This document shows, in pieces, positions 1,429 to 24,839 of a DNA stretch of 36,660 nucleotides. Source of the stretch: a virus. The stretch lies in UHGV virus genome UHGV-0183637; one strand, given 5' to 3'. Position numbers and translations under genes: made by a program. The notes under the pieces were generated by a model. That model was not told the origin of the DNA, did no database searches, and saw only the letters and a list, made by a program, of their open reading frames with translations. The number at the start of each line of letters is the position of its first letter. Position 1 is the first letter of the stretch.

Positions 1429-2055
1429 TCATGCTGATTTCTTGTTTACAGGCTTAGTTTCTTGCTCCGGTGTGACGGGAACGCGATCACCTGGTGTTCC
1501 TGCTCGGATACAGGATTTGGCGCGTTGCAAAATCTCTTTGTCAGTTTCTTCATTACCAGCCAATGCCACGCAAATGGCCTCTTTTAGAGAGTCCCTTATG
1601 TTTAAGTTACGTATAACAGTTTCTATGTCTGTTTCTACTGACGTAGCCAGCCGATTCAAAATCCCTTTTACACCAATTTCTGATGCTGCTATCGCTAACG
1701 CTTTTCGATCCTTACTACTCACAAATCCTAACAATGAAACGATTAACGCAACAGAATCATCGTCGCAATCGAACTTTGGTTCGATTTTTTCATAATTATT
1801 CGAATCATTGCCTTGTGGTTGTTCTCCTGTCAGTAGCCACATAAGTGAAACACCACAGGCATCGGCAACCCTTGCTGCGCTATCAATGGTTGGGTAACTA
1901 TCTCCCCTTAGGTATTTCCTGACAGATGCTTCAGATAAGCCACTACGGCGAGCAATCTCACTTTTGTTTAGCCCCCCCATCGCTTTTTCCAGTCTTTCGC
2001 CAAAGCGTACTATTTGCTCATTATGAAAAGTACGATCATGTTTAATTGATGTCAT
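1429..2055 (-). CDS. Prophage repressor, XRE/lambda-CI-type HTH with uncharacterised C-terminal domain
   Basis: 208 aa. N-terminal HTH segment LNKSEIARRSGLSEASVRKYLRGDSYPTIDSAARVADACGVSLMWLLTGEQ. Leftward-transcribed and divergent from ner-A-B, the position of Mu c. GGGAGA RBS-like sequence upstream on the minus strand. No obvious S24 peptidase motif in the C-terminal half. Confidence 0.8.
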   Translation of the reverse strand: MTSIKHDRTFHNEQIVRFGERLEKAMGGLNKSEIARRSGLSEASVRKYLRGDSYPTIDSAARVADACGVSLMWLLTGEQPQGNDSNNYEKIEPKFDCDDDSVALIVSLLGFVSSKDRKALAIAASEIGVKGILNRLATSVETDIETVIRNLNIRDSLKEAICVALAGNEETDKEILQRAKSCIRAGTPGDRVPVTPEQETKPVNKKSA

Positions 2056-2516: not shown

Positions 2517-4559
2517 GTGTGGTTTGTAGTGCGGGATTGCCTGGGATTATCCGGTTTTCCATCAGCAGAAAAAAACATCCGGGCACGTCTGGATCGTCTT
2601 GCTGAAAATAACCCGGAATGGAAGCGCAAGCGTGAAGGCACCAAAGCATTCGAGTATCGCATCGACTGCCTGCCCGCTGAAGCGCAGAAAGTTTTACGTA
2701 AGCGCCTGACCCATCAGGTCCTGGAAGATGCACAACTGCCCGCCGTAGTTGAGCAGAAAGCAGTTAAAAACGTCGCCGTTCGCGATGAACTGGAGGTGAT
2801 GGTCAAATGCCCGGAGCTGGCATTACGCGAAGTCCAGTCACTGACCGACAAGCAAAAGGCCATCGCTGATGCGCGGATATTGCTGGCTACTGAAGTGCAT
2901 AAGCTGCGCGAGTATGCCGGAATGACCAGGAAGGCCGCTTTAAAGCACATCGTTGATGGTGTGCGCATGGGGGCGTTACCTGACCGCATTATCGAAGCAG
3001 CGAATACTGCAAATGCACGTCAGGGAAAGCGAACCGGTGTCAGCACCGGCAGCCTGGATAGCTGGTACTCCAGCTGGGTGATGGCGCGCGGTGATGCCAA
3101 TCAGTTACTGGCGTTACTGGCTCCCGGTCATCATAAGGGAACACCGTGGGAGCAGGTCTGGTGGTTGAGCGATTTCTTTATGTTCTATCGCTCATGGAAG
3201 CGCCCGACCGTTGAATACGCGTATCGCGAGTTTTCAGCCTGGTGGCATGAAAAACACGCGAATGATGCGGGAATGCTGGCGGCACTGCCTTCAGTTCACG
3301 CAGTAAGACGGGTGTTAAGCAGCGTCCCGGTGATTGTTAAAGAGCGTTTCCGCTCCACCGGTTCAGCCTGGCGTTCGCTCAATCCCTTTGTGCGGCGCGA
3401 CTGGACATCGCTACCGGTTAATGCGGTATGGGTCGGAGATGGTCACTGTATGAAAATGACCGCGTTTAACCCCCTGACCGGCAATATTTTCCGGCCAGAA
3501 GTGACGCTGGTTATGGATGCGGGGCAGCGTTTTGTTGTGGGATGGTCACTGTCCCTGTCGGAGAACGTGATAGCTGTTGCTGATGCGTTGCGTTACGGCA
3601 TGGCGCAGCACGGGATACCGCTGATTTATTACTCCGATAACGGGGGCGGTGAAAAAAACCGGGTTCTTGATGCCGATATTACCGGGATTCTCCCCCGGCT
3701 GGGTGTGGAACATCACACGGGGATACCAGGTAACCCGCAGGGGCGCGGGGTGATTGAAAGGCTTAACAAGGAAATTCCCCGGGATGTGGCCCTGAGTTTC
3801 CAGACGTACTGCTCAAAGGGAGCAGACAAGGAAACCGTAATGATGCAGCAACGGATTATGCAGTCAGCCATTAAGGCCACCCACAAAGGGAAAGAACTGA
3901 CAAAACGGCAGGTTAAGGCGAGGGATGAAGTCCCCACCTTTGAGCAACTGATGGCAGCCATAGAACTGGAGGTCAGACGCTATAACAACCGGCCACACAG
4001 CAGCCTTCCCCGCAAAGAGGATGGCGAATATTACAGCCCGGCAGCGTATCGCCGGAAACTGATAAAAGAGCAGAATGTTGAAATTGATTTCCTGTCGCCG
4101 GAAGAACTGCATGAAATGTTCAGACCGGAAGTGACGCGCAAAACATTTCGCGGGGAAATTCAGTTATTCAACAATATTTATTACTCGTATGAGCTGGCCG
4201 CAGAGCACGGGAATGAAGTCAGGGTCAGTTACGATATTCATGATGCAAACAGCGTCATTGTCCGGCGGGCTGATGGCTCTTATATCTGCGATGCCATCTG
4301 GAACGGTAACAAGGTTGATGCCTTCGCTAAACCAGTTATCGAGCAAAAACTGGAGAAACGCGTCAGAGGCCGCATTGCACGGGCCGCGCAGAAAATCGAA
4401 GAGGCTAAACGCGAGCTTACCCCGGCTATTACGCAGAAGCCTGAGTTTAATCTGGGATATGGACTGGAACGCCAGGAGAAAAAGGAAAAAGAAGAACTTT
4501 ATTTATTCGCATCTGAACGCGAGCGCAATTTAAAGAAAAACGGCACAAACAACCGTTAA
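2517..4559 (+). CDS. Mu-type DDE transposase (MuA-like)
   Basis: 680 aa, GTG start after an AAGGTGGA RBS. N-terminus M-WFVVRDCLGLSGFP parallels MuA MELWVSPKECANLPGLP (enhancer/operator-binding domain). Central region WVGDGH...LVMDAGQRFVVGW...YYSDNGG is consistent with a Mu-family DDE core. Confidence 0.9.
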   Translation: MWFVVRDCLGLSGFPSAEKNIRARLDRLAENNPEWKRKREGTKAFEYRIDCLPAEAQKVLRKRLTHQVLEDAQLPAVVEQKAVKNVAVRDELEVMVKCPELALREVQSLTDKQKAIADARILLATEVHKLREYAGMTRKAALKHIVDGVRMGALPDRIIEAANTANARQGKRTGVSTGSLDSWYSSWVMARGDANQLLALLAPGHHKGTPWEQVWWLSDFFMFYRSWKRPTVEYAYREFSAWWHEKHANDAGMLAALPSVHAVRRVLSSVPVIVKERFRSTGSAWRSLNPFVRRDWTSLPVNAVWVGDGHCMKMTAFNPLTGNIFRPEVTLVMDAGQRFVVGWSLSLSENVIAVADALRYGMAQHGIPLIYYSDNGGGEKNRVLDADITGILPRLGVEHHTGIPGNPQGRGVIERLNKEIPRDVALSFQTYCSKGADKETVMMQQRIMQSAIKATHKGKELTKRQVKARDEVPTFEQLMAAIELEVRRYNNRPHSSLPRKEDGEYYSPAAYRRKLIKEQNVEIDFLSPEELHEMFRPEVTRKTFRGEIQLFNNIYYSYELAAEHGNEVRVSYDIHDANSVIVRRADGSYICDAIWNGNKVDAFAKPVIEQKLEKRVRGRIARAAQKIEEAKRELTPAITQKPEFNLGYGLERQEKKEKEELYLFASERERNLKKNGTNNR

Positions 4560-4577: not shown

Positions 4578-5471
4578 ATGAGTTTAATTACGCAATTAAA
4601 TGACGTAATGGCCCGTCGCGGCTATACGCAAACCCACGTCGCCCGTGCTATTGGTCGTAGCAGCGCCGTTATCAACCAGTATTTACAGGGTAAATATCAG
4701 GGCGATATGGCTGATATTGAAGAACGCATTTCTGCCTTTGTGACCCGTGAGCGGGAAAAGGAAAACAGCCGCCGTATTAAAGCGAAATTTGTTGCCACCG
4801 GTATGGCTGCCAAAGGACTGGAGGTGTTGGCCTATGCTCACCTGGAATGTGAAATCTGCGTACTGTATGGCGCGGCAGGTCTTGGCAAAACAATGATTCT
4901 GCGTGAATACGCCGCCAGAAACCGGGATGCGGTCCTGATTGAAGCCGACCCGGGCTATACAGCCAGAACACTGCTTGAGGAGTTGTGCCGCCAGCTGGGG
5001 GTAAAGGTTCGCGGCAACATTCACGAACTGATAGATGCCTGTGTGCGCGAACTGCGTGATTCCGGTCGCCTGCTGATGGTGGACGAGGCTGAACTGCTCC
5101 CCTATCGCGCACTGGAGGTTCTGCGTCGTCTGCATGACAAAGCGGGTATCGGGGTTGTCCTGGCGGGTATGCCTCGTCTTCTGATTAACCTTAAGGGGCG
5201 TCGTGGTGAGTTCGCCCAGTTATACAGCCGTGTGGCGCTGGCGCTTAACCTGGGCGATACGTTGTCGCAGGAAGATTTTAACCAGATAGCTACCGGGTTG
5301 ATGCCGGAAGCAGCAGAACCGGAAATCAGCGAGGCGCTTTACGCACGCTCGCTGGGTAATGCCCGCCGCCTCTTCAAACTGGCGCGCGGTGTGTACCGGA
5401 TTTGTGATATCAGCGATGCACCGGTCAGTGTGCAGGCCATTGATAAATTCGCAGAAATGTTAATTCACTGA
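4578..5471 (+). CDS. Transposition ATPase / target DNA activator (MuB-like AAA+)
   Basis: 297 aa. N-terminal HTH-like segment (GYTQTHVARAIGRSSAVINQY), Walker A GAAGLGKT, Walker B LLMVDEAE. Immediately downstream of the transposase gene. Confidence 0.85.
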   Translation: MSLITQLNDVMARRGYTQTHVARAIGRSSAVINQYLQGKYQGDMADIEERISAFVTREREKENSRRIKAKFVATGMAAKGLEVLAYAHLECEICVLYGAAGLGKTMILREYAARNRDAVLIEADPGYTARTLLEELCRQLGVKVRGNIHELIDACVRELRDSGRLLMVDEAELLPYRALEVLRRLHDKAGIGVVLAGMPRLLINLKGRRGEFAQLYSRVALALNLGDTLSQEDFNQIATGLMPEAAEPEISEALYARSLGNARRLFKLARGVYRICDISDAPVSVQAIDKFAEMLIH

Positions 5472-17249: not shown

Positions 17250-18845
17250 ATGGCACAGCTTGTTGATATTTACGGACGCCCGCTGAAACGTGAGGCACTC
17301 AAAACCACGCAGTCGGTCAGAGTGGCGGAACGGCTGCGCATTTATCCAGACCACCCGTCGCGTGGTCTGAACATCAGAAAACTGCCGCGCATTCTGGAAG
17401 CTGCCGAACGCGGTTATCTTCCGGCGCAGGCGATGCTGTTTGCGGATATGGAAGAACGTGATGGCCATCTGTTCGCTGAAATGGAAAAGCGCAAAAAAGC
17501 GTTGCTGACGCTGGACTGGTCGGTGGAGCCGCCCCGCAATGCCTCGAAGGCAGAAAAGGAGCTGGCTGCCGCCGTGGATGAATGGCTGCACGGCATCCCG
17601 GACATGGAGGACATCATCCTCAACGGGATGAGCAGTGTCGGTTATGGCTTCAGTTGTCAGGAAATCAGCTGGGCGTTCGTGGATAAAACGTGGTTACCGG
17701 ATGCGGTGACGCTGCGACCGCATAACTGGTTTATTACCCTGCCGGAACACAATGACGAACTCCGGCTGGATGACGGCAATCGTGGGGAAGATGGTAAAGA
17801 CGGTTCCGCGCTGTGGCCGTTCGGCTGGCTGGTTCACCGTTACAACGCCCGGTCGGGGTTCCTGGGTTCGTCTGGTCTGTTTCGTGTACTGGTCTGGCCG
17901 TATCTGTTCAAAAACTTTGCGCTGCGTGATATGGCAGAATTTCTGGAGATTTACGGTCTTCCGGCGCGCATTGCTTACTATGCACAGGGCACCAGTGACG
18001 AGGACCGGGACAACATTCTTGAGGCGCTGGTCAATCTGGGGCATGAAGCGGTGGCAGCCCTGCCGCAGGGTAACGAAATTGAGTTCAAGGAGGCCGCATC
18101 CGGCGGACCGGAGGCGTTCATGTCGATGGTGGAATGGGCAGAGCGTACCACCTCAAAAGTGATTCTGGGCAGTACGCTGACCAGCCAGGCCGACGGTAAA
18201 ACCTCCACCAACGCGCTGGGTAATGTGCATAACGAGGTCAGGCACGACATTCTGGCCGCCGATGCGCGCCAGCTGTCCGGCATGTTCAGCAGCCTGATAC
18301 AGATGATGGCCAGCCTGAACGGCTGGCAGGATATCCCGCCACGCCGTCTGCCGCGTCTGGTGTTTGATGTGCAGCAGGAGGCCGACATTAAGGGCGTGGC
18401 GGAAGCCGTCAGCGTGCTGGTCAACAATGTGGGAATGAAGGATATCCCGGTGTCGTGGGTACGCAAAAAAACCGGTATCCCCACACCGAAAGACGGCGAA
18501 GAGGTACTGGTGCCGGTGGCACAGCGTCTCCCTGTGCAGGCGGGCCTCAGCCAGCTGCGTGAGCGGCTGAATGTTGCCGCGCTCAGTCAGCAGGACAACG
18601 GGGAGGACGACCCGGCACAGCGCGCCATCGACCGGGCAGAGCTTCCGGCAGAGGCCATCGCGCAGGGGATGAACGAACTGGTGGCCCCACTGGTGCAGGC
18701 CATACAGGAAGGCCGGGATGCAGACGAGGCCATGAACGTACTGGCGGAAGCCTGGCCGGAGCTGCCGGATGACACGCTGCGGCAGTTGCTGACGCAGGCA
18801 TTCTTTGTGGCGGATATCTGGGGGCGACTGAATGCCGACAGCTGA
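17250..18845 (+). CDS. Portal protein (Mu gp29-like)
   Basis: 531 aa directly after the terminase gene and before the F-like head morphogenesis gene. Confidence 0.8.
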   Translation: MAQLVDIYGRPLKREALKTTQSVRVAERLRIYPDHPSRGLNIRKLPRILEAAERGYLPAQAMLFADMEERDGHLFAEMEKRKKALLTLDWSVEPPRNASKAEKELAAAVDEWLHGIPDMEDIILNGMSSVGYGFSCQEISWAFVDKTWLPDAVTLRPHNWFITLPEHNDELRLDDGNRGEDGKDGSALWPFGWLVHRYNARSGFLGSSGLFRVLVWPYLFKNFALRDMAEFLEIYGLPARIAYYAQGTSDEDRDNILEALVNLGHEAVAALPQGNEIEFKEAASGGPEAFMSMVEWAERTTSKVILGSTLTSQADGKTSTNALGNVHNEVRHDILAADARQLSGMFSSLIQMMASLNGWQDIPPRRLPRLVFDVQQEADIKGVAEAVSVLVNNVGMKDIPVSWVRKKTGIPTPKDGEEVLVPVAQRLPVQAGLSQLRERLNVAALSQQDNGEDDPAQRAIDRAELPAEAIAQGMNELVAPLVQAIQEGRDADEAMNVLAEAWPELPDDTLRQLLTQAFFVADIWGRLNADS

Positions 18846-19998
18846 CGATGTTGACCTGGGTTATGCGTACACCCTGAAACCGGAAGAAGCGATTAAGTAT
18901 TTCGAAAGCAAGGGATACGTTATCGGCTTCCGCTGGCACGATGTGAAGGACATCGCACACGCCCGGGCGTTCACGGTGGCGGGCGTGCTGAAACTGGATG
19001 TGCTGAAGGATATCCGTGATGGCCTGACGGCGGCACTGGCTGACGGCGGGACGTTCCGGGAGTTTGCTGCACAACTGGAGCCACTGCTGGAATCAAAAGG
19101 CTGGCTGGGTAAACGGCTGATTGTGGACGAGGACACCGGCGAACTGCACGGCAGGCAGCTGATGCCGCGCCGGTTACGCACGATATTTGATACCAACATT
19201 CAGTCGTCATATAACGCCGGGCGTTATCAGCAGCAGATGGCGAACGTGGCCGACCGGCCTTATTTTGAGCGCGTGGCAGTGATGGACCTTCACACCCGCC
19301 CGAAACACGCCGCCCTGAACGGTTTTACCGCCCGGGCGGATGACCCGCTCTGGACGTATTTCTACGCGCCGGACGGATACGGATGCCGCTGCCGTATCCG
19401 GGCGCGTTCGGCGTCTGATGTGGAGAAATACGGCCTGACGGTGCAGAGCAGCGAGGGGCGACTGGTTGAGGTTGAGCAGGAATATGGCCAGCCAGGCCAG
19501 ACCATCAGAACAATGGGGCTGAAGATGCCGGACGGCTCCGTGTATACCGCTGACCCGGGCTTCGGTTTTAACCCCGGCAAAGTGGCATGGCAGCCGGAAC
19601 TGGAAAAATACGATTACCGCAGCGCCCGCCAGTATGTCACCGGCACCCTGACCGGGCCGGACTTTGCCCGGGGGCTGGCGAACGTCAGCGAACTGGATGC
19701 GCGCCAGCGGTATCCACTGGCCATCCGTTCGCCGGAACAGGTCGCCGCCACGGGCGCTGCACGACAGACGGTAAACCTTACGGCTGACGTCATGAAGCGC
19801 CTCAGTGCAACAGACACGCCCCCGACCGCCGCCGACTATGTGCTGATGCAGCAGACCATCGAACGGGCGGAGCATGTCACGCAGGACGGCAACGCGTGGC
19901 GATATGCGTTACAGTCGGGCGACAGCTGGTCAGTGGCGACGGTTGAGGATGACGTGCTGACAGACTGGGTTATGCAGGACACCCCGGAGGCATCATGA
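18832..19998 (+). CDS. Head morphogenesis protein (Mu F / gp30-like)
   Basis: 388 aa; overlaps the portal stop; position and size match Mu F. Confidence 0.8.
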   Translation: MPTADDVDLGYAYTLKPEEAIKYFESKGYVIGFRWHDVKDIAHARAFTVAGVLKLDVLKDIRDGLTAALADGGTFREFAAQLEPLLESKGWLGKRLIVDEDTGELHGRQLMPRRLRTIFDTNIQSSYNAGRYQQQMANVADRPYFERVAVMDLHTRPKHAALNGFTARADDPLWTYFYAPDGYGCRCRIRARSASDVEKYGLTVQSSEGRLVEVEQEYGQPGQTIRTMGLKMPDGSVYTADPGFGFNPGKVAWQPELEKYDYRSARQYVTGTLTGPDFARGLANVSELDARQRYPLAIRSPEQVAATGAARQTVNLTADVMKRLSATDTPPTAADYVLMQQTIERAEHVTQDGNAWRYALQSGDSWSVATVEDDVLTDWVMQDTPEAS

Positions 19999-20701: not shown

Positions 20702-20714
20702 GTGCTGAACACCC
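20702..20714 (+). promoter_or_regulatory. Conserved 13-mer GTGCTGAACACCC, copy B (putative late promoter upstream of the protease/scaffold gene)
   Basis: Exact 13-mer in a 200-bp intergenic gap inside the otherwise compact head operon, 33 bp upstream of ATG 20747. Confidence 0.5.
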
Positions 20715-20746
20715 TCCACAGTACCCCGTGCTCCCCTTCCGTCATC

Positions 20747-21871
20747 ATGCCGCGTATGAAGATGAACATTGCGGCATTAAGCCTCGAAATCACCAAAGCA
20801 ACCCACAGCGAAATCCAGCTGTTTCCGGCAGGCGAGTTCAGCGCAGTGGATGGTCGCCCACATACCGATGAAGTCGAAAGCGGTAAATGGGTGCTGACTG
20901 CCGAACTGGCCGCGCAGCTTGTCGCACAGGTGGCAGCCCGTACCACGCCTTTTGTCATTGATTACGAACATCAGACGCTGCGCGCCGTAAACAACGGCAA
21001 GCCCGCCCCGGCGGCGGGCTGGTTCAGCCAGGTGGAATGGCGTGAAGGTGTGGGCCTGTATGCCATCGGTGTGGAGTGGACGGAGAACGCGGCGGCCATG
21101 ATTGCCGCCGGTGAGTACAAATTTATTTCCCCTGTTTTTGCCTACAACAAGCGCGGCGAAGTGCTGGAGCTGTTACATGCTGCGCTGACCAATACCCCGG
21201 CGCTGGACGGTATGGACGCGGTCATGCTGGCTGCGGCCAGTCGTCTGGCGAGTCTGTCAACTGAAACGGAGACCACAACGGTGGATGAAGAACTGTTAAA
21301 CAATTTGCTTTCCGACCTGCGCTGGATGCTTAACCTCCCGGTGACCTCAACGGCGGAAGATATCAAAAACGAGCTGCAAAAGGTCGTTGACATGATTTCG
21401 AACGGTCAGGGAACGGCGGCGGCATCCGTCAGCCTGCTGGCCCTGCTGAATCAGAAAGACGAGCAAATCGCCAGCCTGTCAGCAAATGCCTATGACCCGA
21501 CGAAGCATATCCCTCTGACGGCATATGAAGAACTTCAGGGGCGTTATGCCGCACTGGCGCAACAGTCCGGTGAGGCCGAAGCCGGGGCACTGATTCAGGC
21601 GGCGCTGTCTGACGGACGCCTGCTTCCGGTACAGGAAGACTGGGCGAAAGATTACGCCAGCCGCGATATCAACGGTTTTAAAACATGGCTGGAAAAAGCG
21701 CCGAAAATTGACGCGCTCAGTCAGACCCAGACCGGCGGCAAGCCACCCAAAACGCCGTCGCCTGCCCCGGCGCAGATTAAAACCGGCGATGACGTCGATG
21801 TCGATATCGCCATTTGTTCAATGATGGGCGTCGATCCAGAGGATGTCGCCCGTTACGCAGGAGACGAGTAA
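20747..21871 (+). CDS. Head maturation protease/scaffold protein (Mu I-like)
   Basis: ATG at 20747 (the track's GTG at 20702 lies inside the promoter-like 13-mer); about 374 aa; position between G-like and major head genes. Confidence 0.75.
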   Translation: MPRMKMNIAALSLEITKATHSEIQLFPAGEFSAVDGRPHTDEVESGKWVLTAELAAQLVAQVAARTTPFVIDYEHQTLRAVNNGKPAPAAGWFSQVEWREGVGLYAIGVEWTENAAAMIAAGEYKFISPVFAYNKRGEVLELLHAALTNTPALDGMDAVMLAAASRLASLSTETETTTVDEELLNNLLSDLRWMLNLPVTSTAEDIKNELQKVVDMISNGQGTAAASVSLLALLNQKDEQIASLSANAYDPTKHIPLTAYEELQGRYAALAQQSGEAEAGALIQAALSDGRLLPVQEDWAKDYASRDINGFKTWLEKAPKIDALSQTQTGGKPPKTPSPAPAQIKTGDDVDVDIAICSMMGVDPEDVARYAGDE

Positions 21872-22267
21872 ATGGATCGCAATACCCCCTACCGTGACGG
21901 CGAACTGAATCCGGTGCCGGTTGCCGCTACGACCGAAATTTTTGGTGGTCATATGGTGGCCGTTAACGCATCCGGTTATGCCGTTCCGGCCAGTGCCACG
22001 GCCTCACAGATTACGCTGGGCGTGTCTGATGGCTGGGTGGATAACAGCAAGGGCAGCAATGGCGACGCCACCGTTCTGGTGCGTTGTGGCAAAGCCTTTC
22101 TGATGGCGAACAGTACCTCAGACCCGGTCACGCAATCGCAGGTTGGTCAGGAATGCTACGTGGAAGACAGCGTGACCGTGGCAAAAACCGACAACAGCAG
22201 CGCCCGTCCTGTCGCCGGGAAAGTGATCGGCATCGGTGACGATGGCGTCTGGATTCATTTCAGTTAA
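21872..22267 (+). CDS. Hypothetical head protein
   Basis: 131 aa between the I-like and major head genes. Confidence 0.6.
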   Translation: MDRNTPYRDGELNPVPVAATTEIFGGHMVAVNASGYAVPASATASQITLGVSDGWVDNSKGSNGDATVLVRCGKAFLMANSTSDPVTQSQVGQECYVEDSVTVAKTDNSSARPVAGKVIGIGDDGVWIHFS

Positions 22268-22277
22268 GGAGCAAAAC

Positions 22278-23186
22278 GTGTTAGTCAACGTTAAAAACGT
22301 CAAACAGATTTTTATCAATCTGAAGGCCACCTTCCAGAAAGCCTTCGACCAGTCACCAACTGACTGGCAGAAGGTGGCAATGGAAGTGCCATCAAACGGC
22401 AAGGAGAACGACTACAGCTGGTTAAGTCGTTTCCCGAAAATGCGCGAGTGGATTGGTGACAAGGTCGTCAAATCACTGGCGGCATTTAACTACACCATCC
22501 GTAACAAGGACTGGGAAGCCACGGTTGAAGTCGATCGTAACGACATCGAGGACGACCAGATTATGGGCTATGCCCTTCAGGCAAAAGGCGCCGGACAGTC
22601 GGCGGCAGAACTCCCGGCAGATATTGTGGCGTCCCTTATCAGTAACGGTTTTACCAATCCCTGTTACGACGGTCAGATGTTCTTTGATACCGACCACCTG
22701 GTCGCCGGTAAATCGGTGTCCAACAAAGGTACCAAAAAACTCAAAGTTGGCTCGCTTGCCGAGGCGAAAGCCTCCTACGGTGCCGCCCGTACGGCCATGC
22801 GTAGTCTGAAAGATGACGAAGGCGCATCCCTCAAAATTCGCCCGAATCTGCTGGTTGTGCCACCGGCGCTGGAGGATGACGCGAACTACCTGATGACCGC
22901 CGAGAAGTTCCCGGACGGCACGCCGAACCCGTACCGCAATACCGCCGAAGTGCTGGTGATGCCGGAGCTGGCGTCGGATTCTGCGTGGTTCCTGTTTGAC
23001 ACCACCAAACCGGTGAAACCGCTGATTTATCAGCTGCGTAAAAAGCCTGTTTTTGTGGAGCAGACGGACTACAACAGCGACAACGTGTTCAAGCGTAAGA
23101 AGTTCCTGTTTGGTGCCGAAGCGCGCTGTAACGGCGGTTACGGCTTCTGGCAGATGGCATTTGGTTCAGATGGTACGACGGAGTAA
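22278..23186 (+). CDS. Major head subunit (Mu T-like)
   Basis: GTG at 22278 after AAGGAG (track start 22236 is upstream in frame); about 302 aa; position and size of Mu T. Confidence 0.8.
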   Translation: MLVNVKNVKQIFINLKATFQKAFDQSPTDWQKVAMEVPSNGKENDYSWLSRFPKMREWIGDKVVKSLAAFNYTIRNKDWEATVEVDRNDIEDDQIMGYALQAKGAGQSAAELPADIVASLISNGFTNPCYDGQMFFDTDHLVAGKSVSNKGTKKLKVGSLAEAKASYGAARTAMRSLKDDEGASLKIRPNLLVVPPALEDDANYLMTAEKFPDGTPNPYRNTAEVLVMPELASDSAWFLFDTTKPVKPLIYQLRKKPVFVEQTDYNSDNVFKRKKFLFGAEARCNGGYGFWQMAFGSDGTTE

Positions 23187-23189
23187 TGC

Positions 23190-23531
23190 ATGGAAAAGGT
23201 GATTGAAATTACCGCCCGCCGTGAGGGTTTTCGCCGCTGCGGTGTGGCACACAGCGCAACCACGAAGGCATGGCCTGCGGATGCGTTCACCCCGGAACAG
23301 CTGGCGGTGCTGAAGGCTGACCCCATGCTGATTGTGGTGGAGCGTGATAAAGCGTCCGGCCAGAACGACGCGGACCAAAGTGATGAACTGGTCGCACAAC
23401 TGGATGCCGAACGCCAGAAAGTCAGCGAACTGACGGCGCAACTGGAAGAAGAACGCCAGAAAGTCAGTGAACTGACCGCACAGCTGAACGCCGCACAGAA
23501 AACACAAAAAGCGGACAAAAAGGAGAAGTAA
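23190..23531 (+). CDS. Hypothetical head-associated protein with coiled-coil C-terminus
   Basis: 113 aa; C-terminal half contains a tandemly duplicated 14-aa unit ERQKVSELTAQL(EE/NA). Confidence 0.6.
   Translation: MEKVIEITARREGFRRCGVAHSATTKAWPADAFTPEQLAVLKADPMLIVVERDKASGQNDADQSDELVAQLDAERQKVSELTAQLEEERQKVSELTAQLNAAQKTQKADKKEK
23409..23492 (+). repeat. Tandem direct duplication, 2 x 42 bp, inside a coding sequence
   Basis: GAACGCCAGAAAGTCAG(C/T)GAACTGAC(G/C)GC(G/A)CA(A/G)CTG... appears twice back to back with a few substitutions. Confidence 0.6.
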
Positions 23532-23534
23532 CCC

Positions 23535-23966
23535 ATGTCTTACGCCACACCGGAACAGTTCATCAGGGCGTTCAGTGAACGAGAGGCACGCACACTGACG
23601 GATGAAGACATGACGGGATTCATCGACGAAGAAAAGCTGGCCTCCGCGCTTGCGCGCGCCAGTGCCCAGATTGATGGCTATCTGGTGGGGCGTTACCGGA
23701 CCCCGTGGCCTGACAGCCCGGGGATTCTGGTGGGTTACTGCTGCGATATCGCCCGTTACCACCTGGCGACCGATTACCGTATCTGCTCAGAAGAAATTCA
23801 GATGCGCTACCGGGACGCCATCCGCTTTCTGGAGAAAGTCGCGGCAGGACAAATCAACCTCGGGCGGGATACGTCCGGCAGCGTGATCCAGTCATCGTCA
23901 CAGGTGCGTATCCGCTCCGGCTCCCGTCAGTTCGGGCGTGAGTCCACGCGGGGAGGTGCATTCTGA
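23535..23966 (+). CDS. Mu gp36-like protein (DUF1320)
   Basis: 143 aa; position after the major head gene; resembles the gp36 family (from memory). Confidence 0.65.
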   Translation: MSYATPEQFIRAFSEREARTLTDEDMTGFIDEEKLASALARASAQIDGYLVGRYRTPWPDSPGILVGYCCDIARYHLATDYRICSEEIQMRYRDAIRFLEKVAAGQINLGRDTSGSVIQSSSQVRIRSGSRQFGRESTRGGAF

Positions 23967-24616
23967 TTACTGACATTGAACGGGCGCTGGTTGAGCGTCT
24001 GCGCTGTGGTCTGGGGCATATGGTGCAGGATGTCCGCACCTATGCCGGTGAACTGGATGAAGACCCGGGCCGGATTGTTCGCAGCCTTCCGGCAGCCTGG
24101 GTGACGTTCGGCGGCATCGTGAAAACCGAACGCTATTCCACGTCACGCCGGAAATACATTGCCACCGGACGCTTTGTGGTTGTGGTGGGTGATTACAACA
24201 CCCGCAGCGAACAGAGCGCCAGACAGGGAGGCACCGTCCGGGATGAGGTCGGTACAAACCTGCTGGTTGAATCCGTCCGTCGCCTGCTGACCGGTCAGGA
24301 TTTGGGGCTGGAGATTGATTATTTCGAACCCGGGCGGGTCAGGACGCTGTTTAACACCGGCGTGGCAGAGCGGGCAATGTCCGTGTTTGCCTGTGAGTTC
24401 GATACCCGCTGGGTGGAGCACGCGCTGGAGAATGGCAAATGGCCGGAGCGCGGCGCAGAAGCGGATCGTCTCTTCAACCGCTACCACGGCAGGCTGTCAG
24501 ACCCTGACCCGGAACTGCTGAACCTTGGCATCCGGTACCAGATGCAGGACAGCGACGCTGAAATATCAGGGCTGACTGAATTAAGAGAGCAACAGCATGA
24601 ACAAAATGAAGGTTAA
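23966..24616 (+). CDS. Mu gp37-like protein (DUF1834); start codon uncertain
   Basis: The track ORF starts at ATG 24020, but the frame is open and protein-like (ITDIERALVERLRCGLGH) back to the stop of the previous gene, with only ATT/CTG as possible starts there. Confidence 0.65.
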   Translation: MTDIERALVERLRCGLGHMVQDVRTYAGELDEDPGRIVRSLPAAWVTFGGIVKTERYSTSRRKYIATGRFVVVVGDYNTRSEQSARQGGTVRDEVGTNLLVESVRRLLTGQDLGLEIDYFEPGRVRTLFNTGVAERAMSVFACEFDTRWVEHALENGKWPERGAEADRLFNRYHGRLSDPDPELLNLGIRYQMQDSDAEISGLTELREQQHEQNEG

Positions 24617-24839
24617 GGCGGCTTCCGGGATGAAGTTCCCGATGGAGGATAACGCCCGGAAATACATCACCACGGAAGCGGTGACTGTTGAGAACACCGC
24701 TTATTACCGGCGCGCCGTTCAGGACGGTGACCTGATTCTGGTGAAGGATGAACCTGAAGCCACCGAGGTGGCTGAACAGGACGCCGTGCAGGTAAAAGCG
24801 AAGGCGAAGAAAGAGAAACAGGTGGGTTCCAATGAGTGA
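24597..24839 (+). CDS. Hypothetical small protein (Mu gp38 position)
   Basis: 80 aa immediately upstream of the sheath gene, overlapping it by 8 nt. Confidence 0.6.
   Translation: MNKMKVKAASGMKFPMEDNARKYITTEAVTVENTAYYRRAVQDGDLILVKDEPEATEVAEQDAVQVKAKAKKEKQVGSNE

Follow-up and report, generated by a model that had tools for sequence, protein, structure and literature searches.

A CTG codon overlapping the gp36 stop as the probable start of a gp37-like tail terminator gene in a Mu-like prophage lineage of E. coli

The gp36/gp37 junction of a Mu-like prophage

The window, by which we mean the whole 36,660-nt stretch of viral DNA analysed (UHGV virus genome UHGV-0183637), carries an apparently complete Mu-like transposable prophage as judged from Pfam matches and the gene listing. 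The host of this prophage lineage is E. coli. The following genes were assigned:

1429-2055, minus strand: HTH repressor, early gene
2517-4559: MuA-type transposase, early gene, full length
4578-5471: MuB-like ATPase, early gene, full length
17250-18845: Mu portal (Portal_Mu), head gene
18832-19998: Mu F, head gene
20702-21871: protease I, head gene
22236-23186: major head protein T, head gene
23190-23531: FluMu_N protein, directly before the gp36-like gene
23535-23966, plus strand: gp36-like head-tail adaptor, 143 aa, ending GCA TTC TGA; Pfam Phage_Mu_Gp36, 114.5 bits; PHROG 195, head-tail adaptor
23963-24616, plus strand: gp37-like predicted tail terminator, full gene of 217 codons plus stop; Pfam Phage_Mu_Gp37, 159 bits
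24597-24839: DUF2635, tail gene
24832-26253: tail sheath, tail gene
27093-29456: tape measure gene, tail gene

Further tail genes in the window encode a DNA-circularisation protein and baseplate J, and all structural and transposition genes that were checked are full length. The gp37-like gene lies between the gp36 adaptor gene and the genes for DUF2635 and the tail sheath, an order that is the same in all loci fetched. The longest DUF2635 ORF (24597-24839) overlaps the final 20 nt of gp37, and its start differs among RefSeq genomes, which carry 201-, 210- and 234-nt models, so that the operon holds a second unsettled start. Further downstream, two ORFs (26637-27038 and 27035-27193) closely precede the tape measure gene and resemble a tail-chaperone pair; in contractile and long-tailed phages such a pair is usually made by programmed frameshifting.

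The gp36-like frame, as read from the sequence, is closed by the TGA at 23964-23966. The gp37 frame (positions congruent to 2 modulo 3) is open from 23942 and contains no ATG, GTG or TTG before the ATG at 24020, which is where the automatic ORF listing, built on canonical starts, begins the gp37 ORF. From 23942 its codons read GTC CAC GCG GGG AGG TGC ATT (23960) CTG (23963) ATT (23966) ACT GAC. The initial annotation was therefore right that the apparent N-terminus of gp37 lacks a canonical start. It had the frame opening directly after the gp36 stop; the frame is indeed open there, but it opens at 23942, 22 nt before that stop. The two near-cognate codons that it took to be the only ones available, ATT 23966 and CTG 23963, are both present, but a third, ATT 23960, had been missed. 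The CTG overlaps the gp36 stop as CTGA (23963-23966), a four-base overlap of the NTGA type. Since the 26-codon open stretch is in itself unremarkable, with a chance expectation of (61/64)^26 ~ 0.3, the question of the start had to be settled by homology. The features of the junction are:

23939-23941, plus strand: in-frame TGA closing the gp37 frame upstream, from sequence reading
23950-23958, plus strand: Shine-Dalgarno (SD) site GGGGAGGTG, whose core GGAGGTG (23952-23958) is complementary to the 16S rRNA 3' end
23960-23962, plus strand: in-frame ATT, an unlikely alternative start
23963-23965, plus strand: CTG, proposed gp37 initiation codon, aligned with the TTG or ATG start of homologues in near-identical context
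23966-24019, plus strand: codons 2-19 (ITDIERALVERLRCGLGH), most of helix alpha-1 and the stretch that looked start-less
24020-24022, plus strand: first in-frame ATG, coding for a conserved Met inside the protein (residue 20 with the CTG as residue 1), where helix 1 ends

The gp37 N-terminus and the start codons of its relatives

The gp37-like protein matches Pfam PF08873 (Phage_Mu_Gp37) with 159 bits against a gathering cut-off of 25, and positions 2-148 of the 149 in the model align to residues 2-150 counted from CTG 23963. We aligned the protein with homologues from a second E. coli prophage, a Klebsiella phage, Haemophilus phage SuMu and a Mannheimia phage, and found that conservation begins at the residue directly after the CTG: I2, E6, A8, R12, L13, G16 and G18 are invariant, and E6, R12, L13, G16 and G18 are still invariant among 61 sequences. 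This is the opposite of a pattern in which homologues begin at the equivalent of 24020 and leave the upstream 18 codons unconserved, which the initial annotation had named as the case against an upstream start. An AlphaFold2 (AF2) model built on the homologue alignment (mean pLDDT 83.8) places residues 2-20 in helix 1 with a pLDDT of ~96. On these grounds the 18 codons before ATG 24020 are predicted to be real coding sequence. The profile alignment, the invariant residues, the modelled helix 1 and the loss of that helix from a product begun at ATG 24020 together place the N-terminus at the CTG.

A Foldseek search with the AF2 model gave the Mu terminator structures 9khy and 9lj8 as the best PDB matches (E = 4e-8 and 1.3e-7; TM 0.47-0.64), followed by further terminators of phages and tailocins, among them T5 p142, lambda gpU and the pyocin R2 collar. 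It was this fold search that connected the protein to Mu gp37; a PDB sequence search with a six-sequence profile returned no match at E<=1, and NCBIfam holds no model for gp36 or gp37. In Mu, gp37 is the hexameric tail terminator, present in six copies per virion, and gp36 is a dodecameric adaptor (PMC11915804). The gp37-like gene is thus predicted, from the modelled fold, to encode the tail terminator of the Mu-like prophage. PHROG phrog_490 labels the gp37 family 'portal protein', as do the RefSeq records of the SuMu and Mannheimia phage copies (NC_019455, NC_028766); the fold search instead points to a tail terminator, and the portal proper lies at 17250-18845, so this label looks like a propagated misannotation.

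The start codons of the homologues fall at the position of the CTG. It is occupied by ATG in SuMu, in the Mannheimia phage and in other Pasteurellaceae phages and prophages, and by TTG in most Enterobacterales relatives, where it usually overlaps the gp36 stop as TTGA; in most homologues the stop/start overlap is kept as TTGA or ATGA, so that the geometry for the coupling or re-initiation named in the initial annotation is conserved. A non-canonical initiation codon, one of the explanations offered in the initial annotation, gains support from this agreement. The nearest relatives read GGAGGTGCATT-TTG-AT where the window reads GGAGGTGCATT-CTG-AT. Citrobacter braakii (86% protein identity) has ggggaggtgcattTTGatt against ggggaggtgcattCTGatt in the window, and the context in C. 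freundii (81% protein identity) is ggggaggtgcgttTTGatt. The CTG would accordingly be a TTG start altered by one T-to-C transition, a change that is silent in gp36, where the last sense codon goes from TTT to TTC and Phe is kept. A blastn search of the junction against the phage collection gave no match and tblastn was needed; phage Mu itself was not recovered by tblastn at E<=1e-5. In a Trabulsiella odontotermitis contig (L047, JNGH01000102.1, ~540-605), the gp37 homologue is annotated from an internal Met although a TTG stands at the homologous start; the called gp36 of that contig (138-560) extends beyond the TTG, so the junction differs there, which may reflect an indel or a mis-called start.

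Within the E. coli lineage the CTG is fixed. Matches to the 601-nt junction region at >=95% identity occur in 55 complete E. coli genomes, and the exact 34-mer 23940-23973, which includes the CTG, occurs at 49 places in 47 E. coli genomes. In four further E. coli genomes the sole difference is a synonymous G-to-A change at 23948, and the CTG is kept. Altogether it is present in 52/52 complete E. coli genomes checked, with 51 intact copies. In IMG/VR the CTG is found in all 21 loci at >=89% protein identity, whereas a canonical start, in the same position or within a few codons upstream, is seen in every locus at <=82%; a diverged contig at 83% identity (L045) likewise has CTG. We built a neighbour-joining tree from the first 567 nt of the gene, in which all CTG copies group as a single clade inside the TTG copies (bootstrap 154/200 for the CTG clade including L045, 200/200 for the E. 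coli clade), and a single origin of the CTG is the simplest reading of this tree. One copy, in E. coli C5 (L014, NZ_CP010122.1, 244-1458), has an IS3-family element 8 nt upstream of the CTG, which is kept; the insertion removes the SD and the 3' end of gp36, and this prophage is clearly inactivated.

Proposed initiation at the CTG and its alternatives

The CTG lies 6 nt from the end of GGAGG. At -12.3 kcal/mol, the predicted SD/anti-SD duplex is the strongest of 26 late-gene starts and within the top 0.11% of window positions. The SD site is also common to the TTG relatives, and the segment that contains SD and CTG, GGGGAGGTGCATTCTGAT, is invariant in all CTG copies. The RNA fold of 23900-24040 was indistinguishable from shuffles (z = -1.08), and no start-hiding or frameshift-stimulating structure is claimed. 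CUG is a poor initiator, belonging to the codons against which IF3 discriminates (bioRxiv 10.1101/063800; PMC2268962). In E. coli reporters it reached 1-2% of the AUG level, in the class of AUU, AUC and AUA, while AUG, GUG and UUG gave 10-100% (bioRxiv 10.1101/063800).

We propose that the very strong SD (GGAGGTG) would position ribosomes at the CTG, where initiator tRNA would pair with CUG via a first-position mismatch, as at UUG and GUG, so that the protein would begin with fMet. As the CTG overlaps the gp36 stop, the CTGA overlap would deliver ribosomes ending gp36 onto the start site, and coupling or re-initiation probably raises initiation at the CTG. In E. coli, re-initiation depends on initiator tRNA and IF2, and in the presence of an SD excess IF3 inhibits it less (PMC2268962). 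With RRF active, a coupled reporter lacking an SD lost all downstream reading once its AUG had been changed to AUA (PMC9955659). Coupling of that kind did not tolerate the near-cognate AUA, so coupling alone would not be expected to rescue the CUG, and the strong SD is probably the main compensating element. The output of gp37 is expected to be low, and a weak start is plausible for a terminator that is needed at six copies per virion. Among the late-gene ORF starts listed in the window, 20/26 are ATG; set against these, the prevalence of TTG at gp37 in the relatives suggests that low translation of this gene may be an old trait. We put at roughly three in four the probability that gp37 coding starts at CTG 23963 and not at ATG 24020, that this CTG comes from a TTG, and that initiation is at CUG.

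Initiation might instead take place at the in-frame AUU at 23966 or, less likely, at 23960, giving a product one residue shorter or longer. AUU and CUG initiate at a similar level in E. coli, 1-2% of AUG, and the infC and pcnB genes of E. coli use an AUU start (both from bioRxiv 10.1101/063800); ATT 23966 sits 9 nt past GGAGG, which is a workable range. Nevertheless, it is the CTG that corresponds to the TTG or ATG with which all relatives start. Of the codons named in the initial annotation, CTG 23963 is thus the homologue of the ancestral start. ATT 23966 encodes the conserved Ile2, a residue that homologues possess directly after a start codon of their own, and the diverged CTG copy L045 has ATC here. 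For the ATT at 23960 the spacing of 3 nt from GGAGG is too short, and none of the homologues begins at that codon. We consider AUU initiation unlikely, and CUG itself is probably the codon that is decoded.

Translation from ATG 24020 would yield a terminator of 198 aa that is truncated at its N-terminus. No canonical start precedes this ATG, and annotation of it is common: on identical DNA, RefSeq starts the gene at the CTG in 27/47 genomes ('DUF1834 family protein', e.g. WP_077781769.1, WP_071791946.1) and at ATG 24020 in the other 20/47 ('phage protein Gp37', e.g. WP_000249531.1). The truncated product would nonetheless be without helix 1, with its high pLDDT and seven invariant residues, and the SD before this ATG is weak (-4.7 kcal/mol). 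The Met at 24020 is internal, and the homologues from the Klebsiella phage, Trabulsiella (L021) and Martelella have Leu instead. Upstream of this Met the 18 codons stay open, and change among CTG copies is mostly synonymous there. A start at ATG 24020 is therefore very unlikely. The shorter model, found in the 20/47 genomes and in all Prodigal-type calls, drops helix 1 of the tail terminator, and a homology-based start correction would mend the gp37 annotation.

If the start codon had simply been lost by mutation, gp37 would be dead and the prophage in decay. As a start, CTG is very weak, and some copies are degraded, as in C5 with its IS3 element. The gene is, however, under constraint: pairwise omega among CTG copies was 0.06-0.50, with p<0.03 for a value below 1 in all pairs. 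Over codons 2-19, E2348/69 and L045 differ by 6 synonymous and 0 non-synonymous changes, a result that depends on L045 sharing the CTG by descent (77% bootstrap); within the tight E. coli clade the N-terminal 18 codons show 2 synonymous and 3 non-synonymous changes, too few to speak to selection. A haplotype table of all CTG copies gives ~8 synonymous events in the N-terminal stretch, and non-synonymous changes are confined to D5E and the H19 position, both variable family-wide. The ~70 intact copies checked at the junction are all free of stops there, and the eight full-length gp37 copies analysed contain neither frameshifts nor premature stops.

The copies also lie at different sites and interrupt different host genes. 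Prophages were found inside fliH (OkiPb01701), scpC (TUM1881) and eutC (E2348/69) and beside fadR (M8); copies are also carried on 249-kb plasmids of isolate AF34, and there are two per genome in STEC316 and AVS0151. These varied insertion sites are the pattern expected of an active Mu-type element, and the genes of the window that were checked are full length, as noted above. Taken together, the selection and mobility data argue indirectly against a dead gp37 gene, which we consider highly improbable. A literature search on the E. coli Mu-like prophage (E2348/69, eutC insertion) found nothing relevant. The tail-fibre modules at the right end of the prophage vary between copies (L039-L042, four E. 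coli genomes). The C-terminal ~30 residues of gp37 (~24520-24613) are mosaic among near-identical prophages, with three endings in eight copies. The C-terminal hairpin of Mu gp37 touches the last sheath ring (PMC11915804), and the variation may co-vary with the sheath.

A gp36-gp37 fusion made by programmed -1 frameshifting in the 22-nt overlap 23942-23963 is scarcely credible. The gp37 frame is indeed -1 relative to gp36 and open for 7 codons before the gp36 stop, and the G-run G GGA (23951-23954) could in principle permit a single-tRNA slip. The gp36-frame codons ACG CGG GGA GGT GCA TTC TGA, however, contain no X XXY YYZ heptamer, and the local RNA fold, as given above, is not significant. 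In Pasteurellaceae homologues a stop closes the gp37 frame 1-3 codons before the start, which rules out fusion as a conserved mechanism. Moreover, the adaptor (12 copies) and the terminator (6 copies) belong to separate lines of assembly, one for the head and one for the tail (PMC11915804). A sequencing or assembly error at 23963, raised in the initial annotation and favoured only by the rarity of CTG starts, is excluded by the identical CTG in 52 E. coli genomes from many laboratories and platforms, 21 IMG/VR contigs and one Logan contig, that is, in more than 70 independent assemblies.

Starting from the preferred reading, initiation at the CTG, one may ask whether the weakening of the start from ATG (Pasteurellaceae) through TTG (most Enterobacterales) to CTG (the E. 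coli lineage) is an adaptive dosing device. A very strong SD and a stop-start overlap accompany the start throughout this series. If the idea were true, synthesis of the terminator would be kept to a small, constant share of that of the adaptor. Since IF3 rejects codons of the CUG type, tail completion would also be sensitive to the IF3/IF2 balance and physiology of the host, like the AUU in infC. We regard this idea as doubtful.

Comparison with known systems

CTG starts are very rare in bacteria, and read as a CUG start the gp37 codon is a further example of a rare, established kind of weak start codon. The case is unusually clear and traceable because it concerns an essential virion gene, because TTG stands at the same place in Citrobacter relatives (81-86% identity) and because the CTG is kept across a mobile lineage. 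Among the papers searched we found none describing the gp37 CTG start, and no N-terminal sequence, mutagenesis or start-site profiling for it. The main value of the finding lies in the correction of the annotation and in a natural case of TTG-to-CTG change.

The closest structural counterpart is Mu gp37 (gene K; 9khy/9lj8), with which the window protein shares the Pfam family, the position between the gp36 adaptor gene and the sheath gene, and the Foldseek fold (E = 4e-8), although sequence identity is only ~15%.

With respect to the start codon, the nearest parallels are hda and yfjD, the confirmed CTG starts of E. coli K-12 and the only two reported as confirmed there (EcoGene 3.0, PMC3531124). 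As in gp37, a conserved N-terminus lies upstream of the first canonical start in these genes, the CTG is properly spaced from a ribosome-binding site, and the start was predicted from conservation before testing. In contrast, hda and yfjD are chromosomal and their starts were proven by mutagenesis, whereas gp37 is an essential phage structural gene whose start is predicted from sequence. The gp37 CTG further differs from both in overlapping an upstream stop and in having a TTG ancestor that is visible in close relatives.

The AUU starts of infC and pcnB resemble the gp37 CTG in being near-cognate, giving low translation and being sensitive to IF3 discrimination. In infC the AUU is used for autoregulation by IF3. 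We know of no such regulatory loop for a phage terminator, nor of any indication of one, unlike in infC.

Stop/start coupling has been studied at overlaps such as ATGA and TAATG, including the coat-lysis junction of RNA phage GA (PMC9955659; PMC2268962), and the gp37 junction likewise has a four-base overlap. The studied models restart at AUG, and AUA in the setting without an SD abolished restart, whereas gp37 combines a CUG with a very strong SD. The gp36/gp37 junction offers a convenient natural setting in which to measure how far a CUG start can be compensated by a strong SD together with a stop-start overlap.
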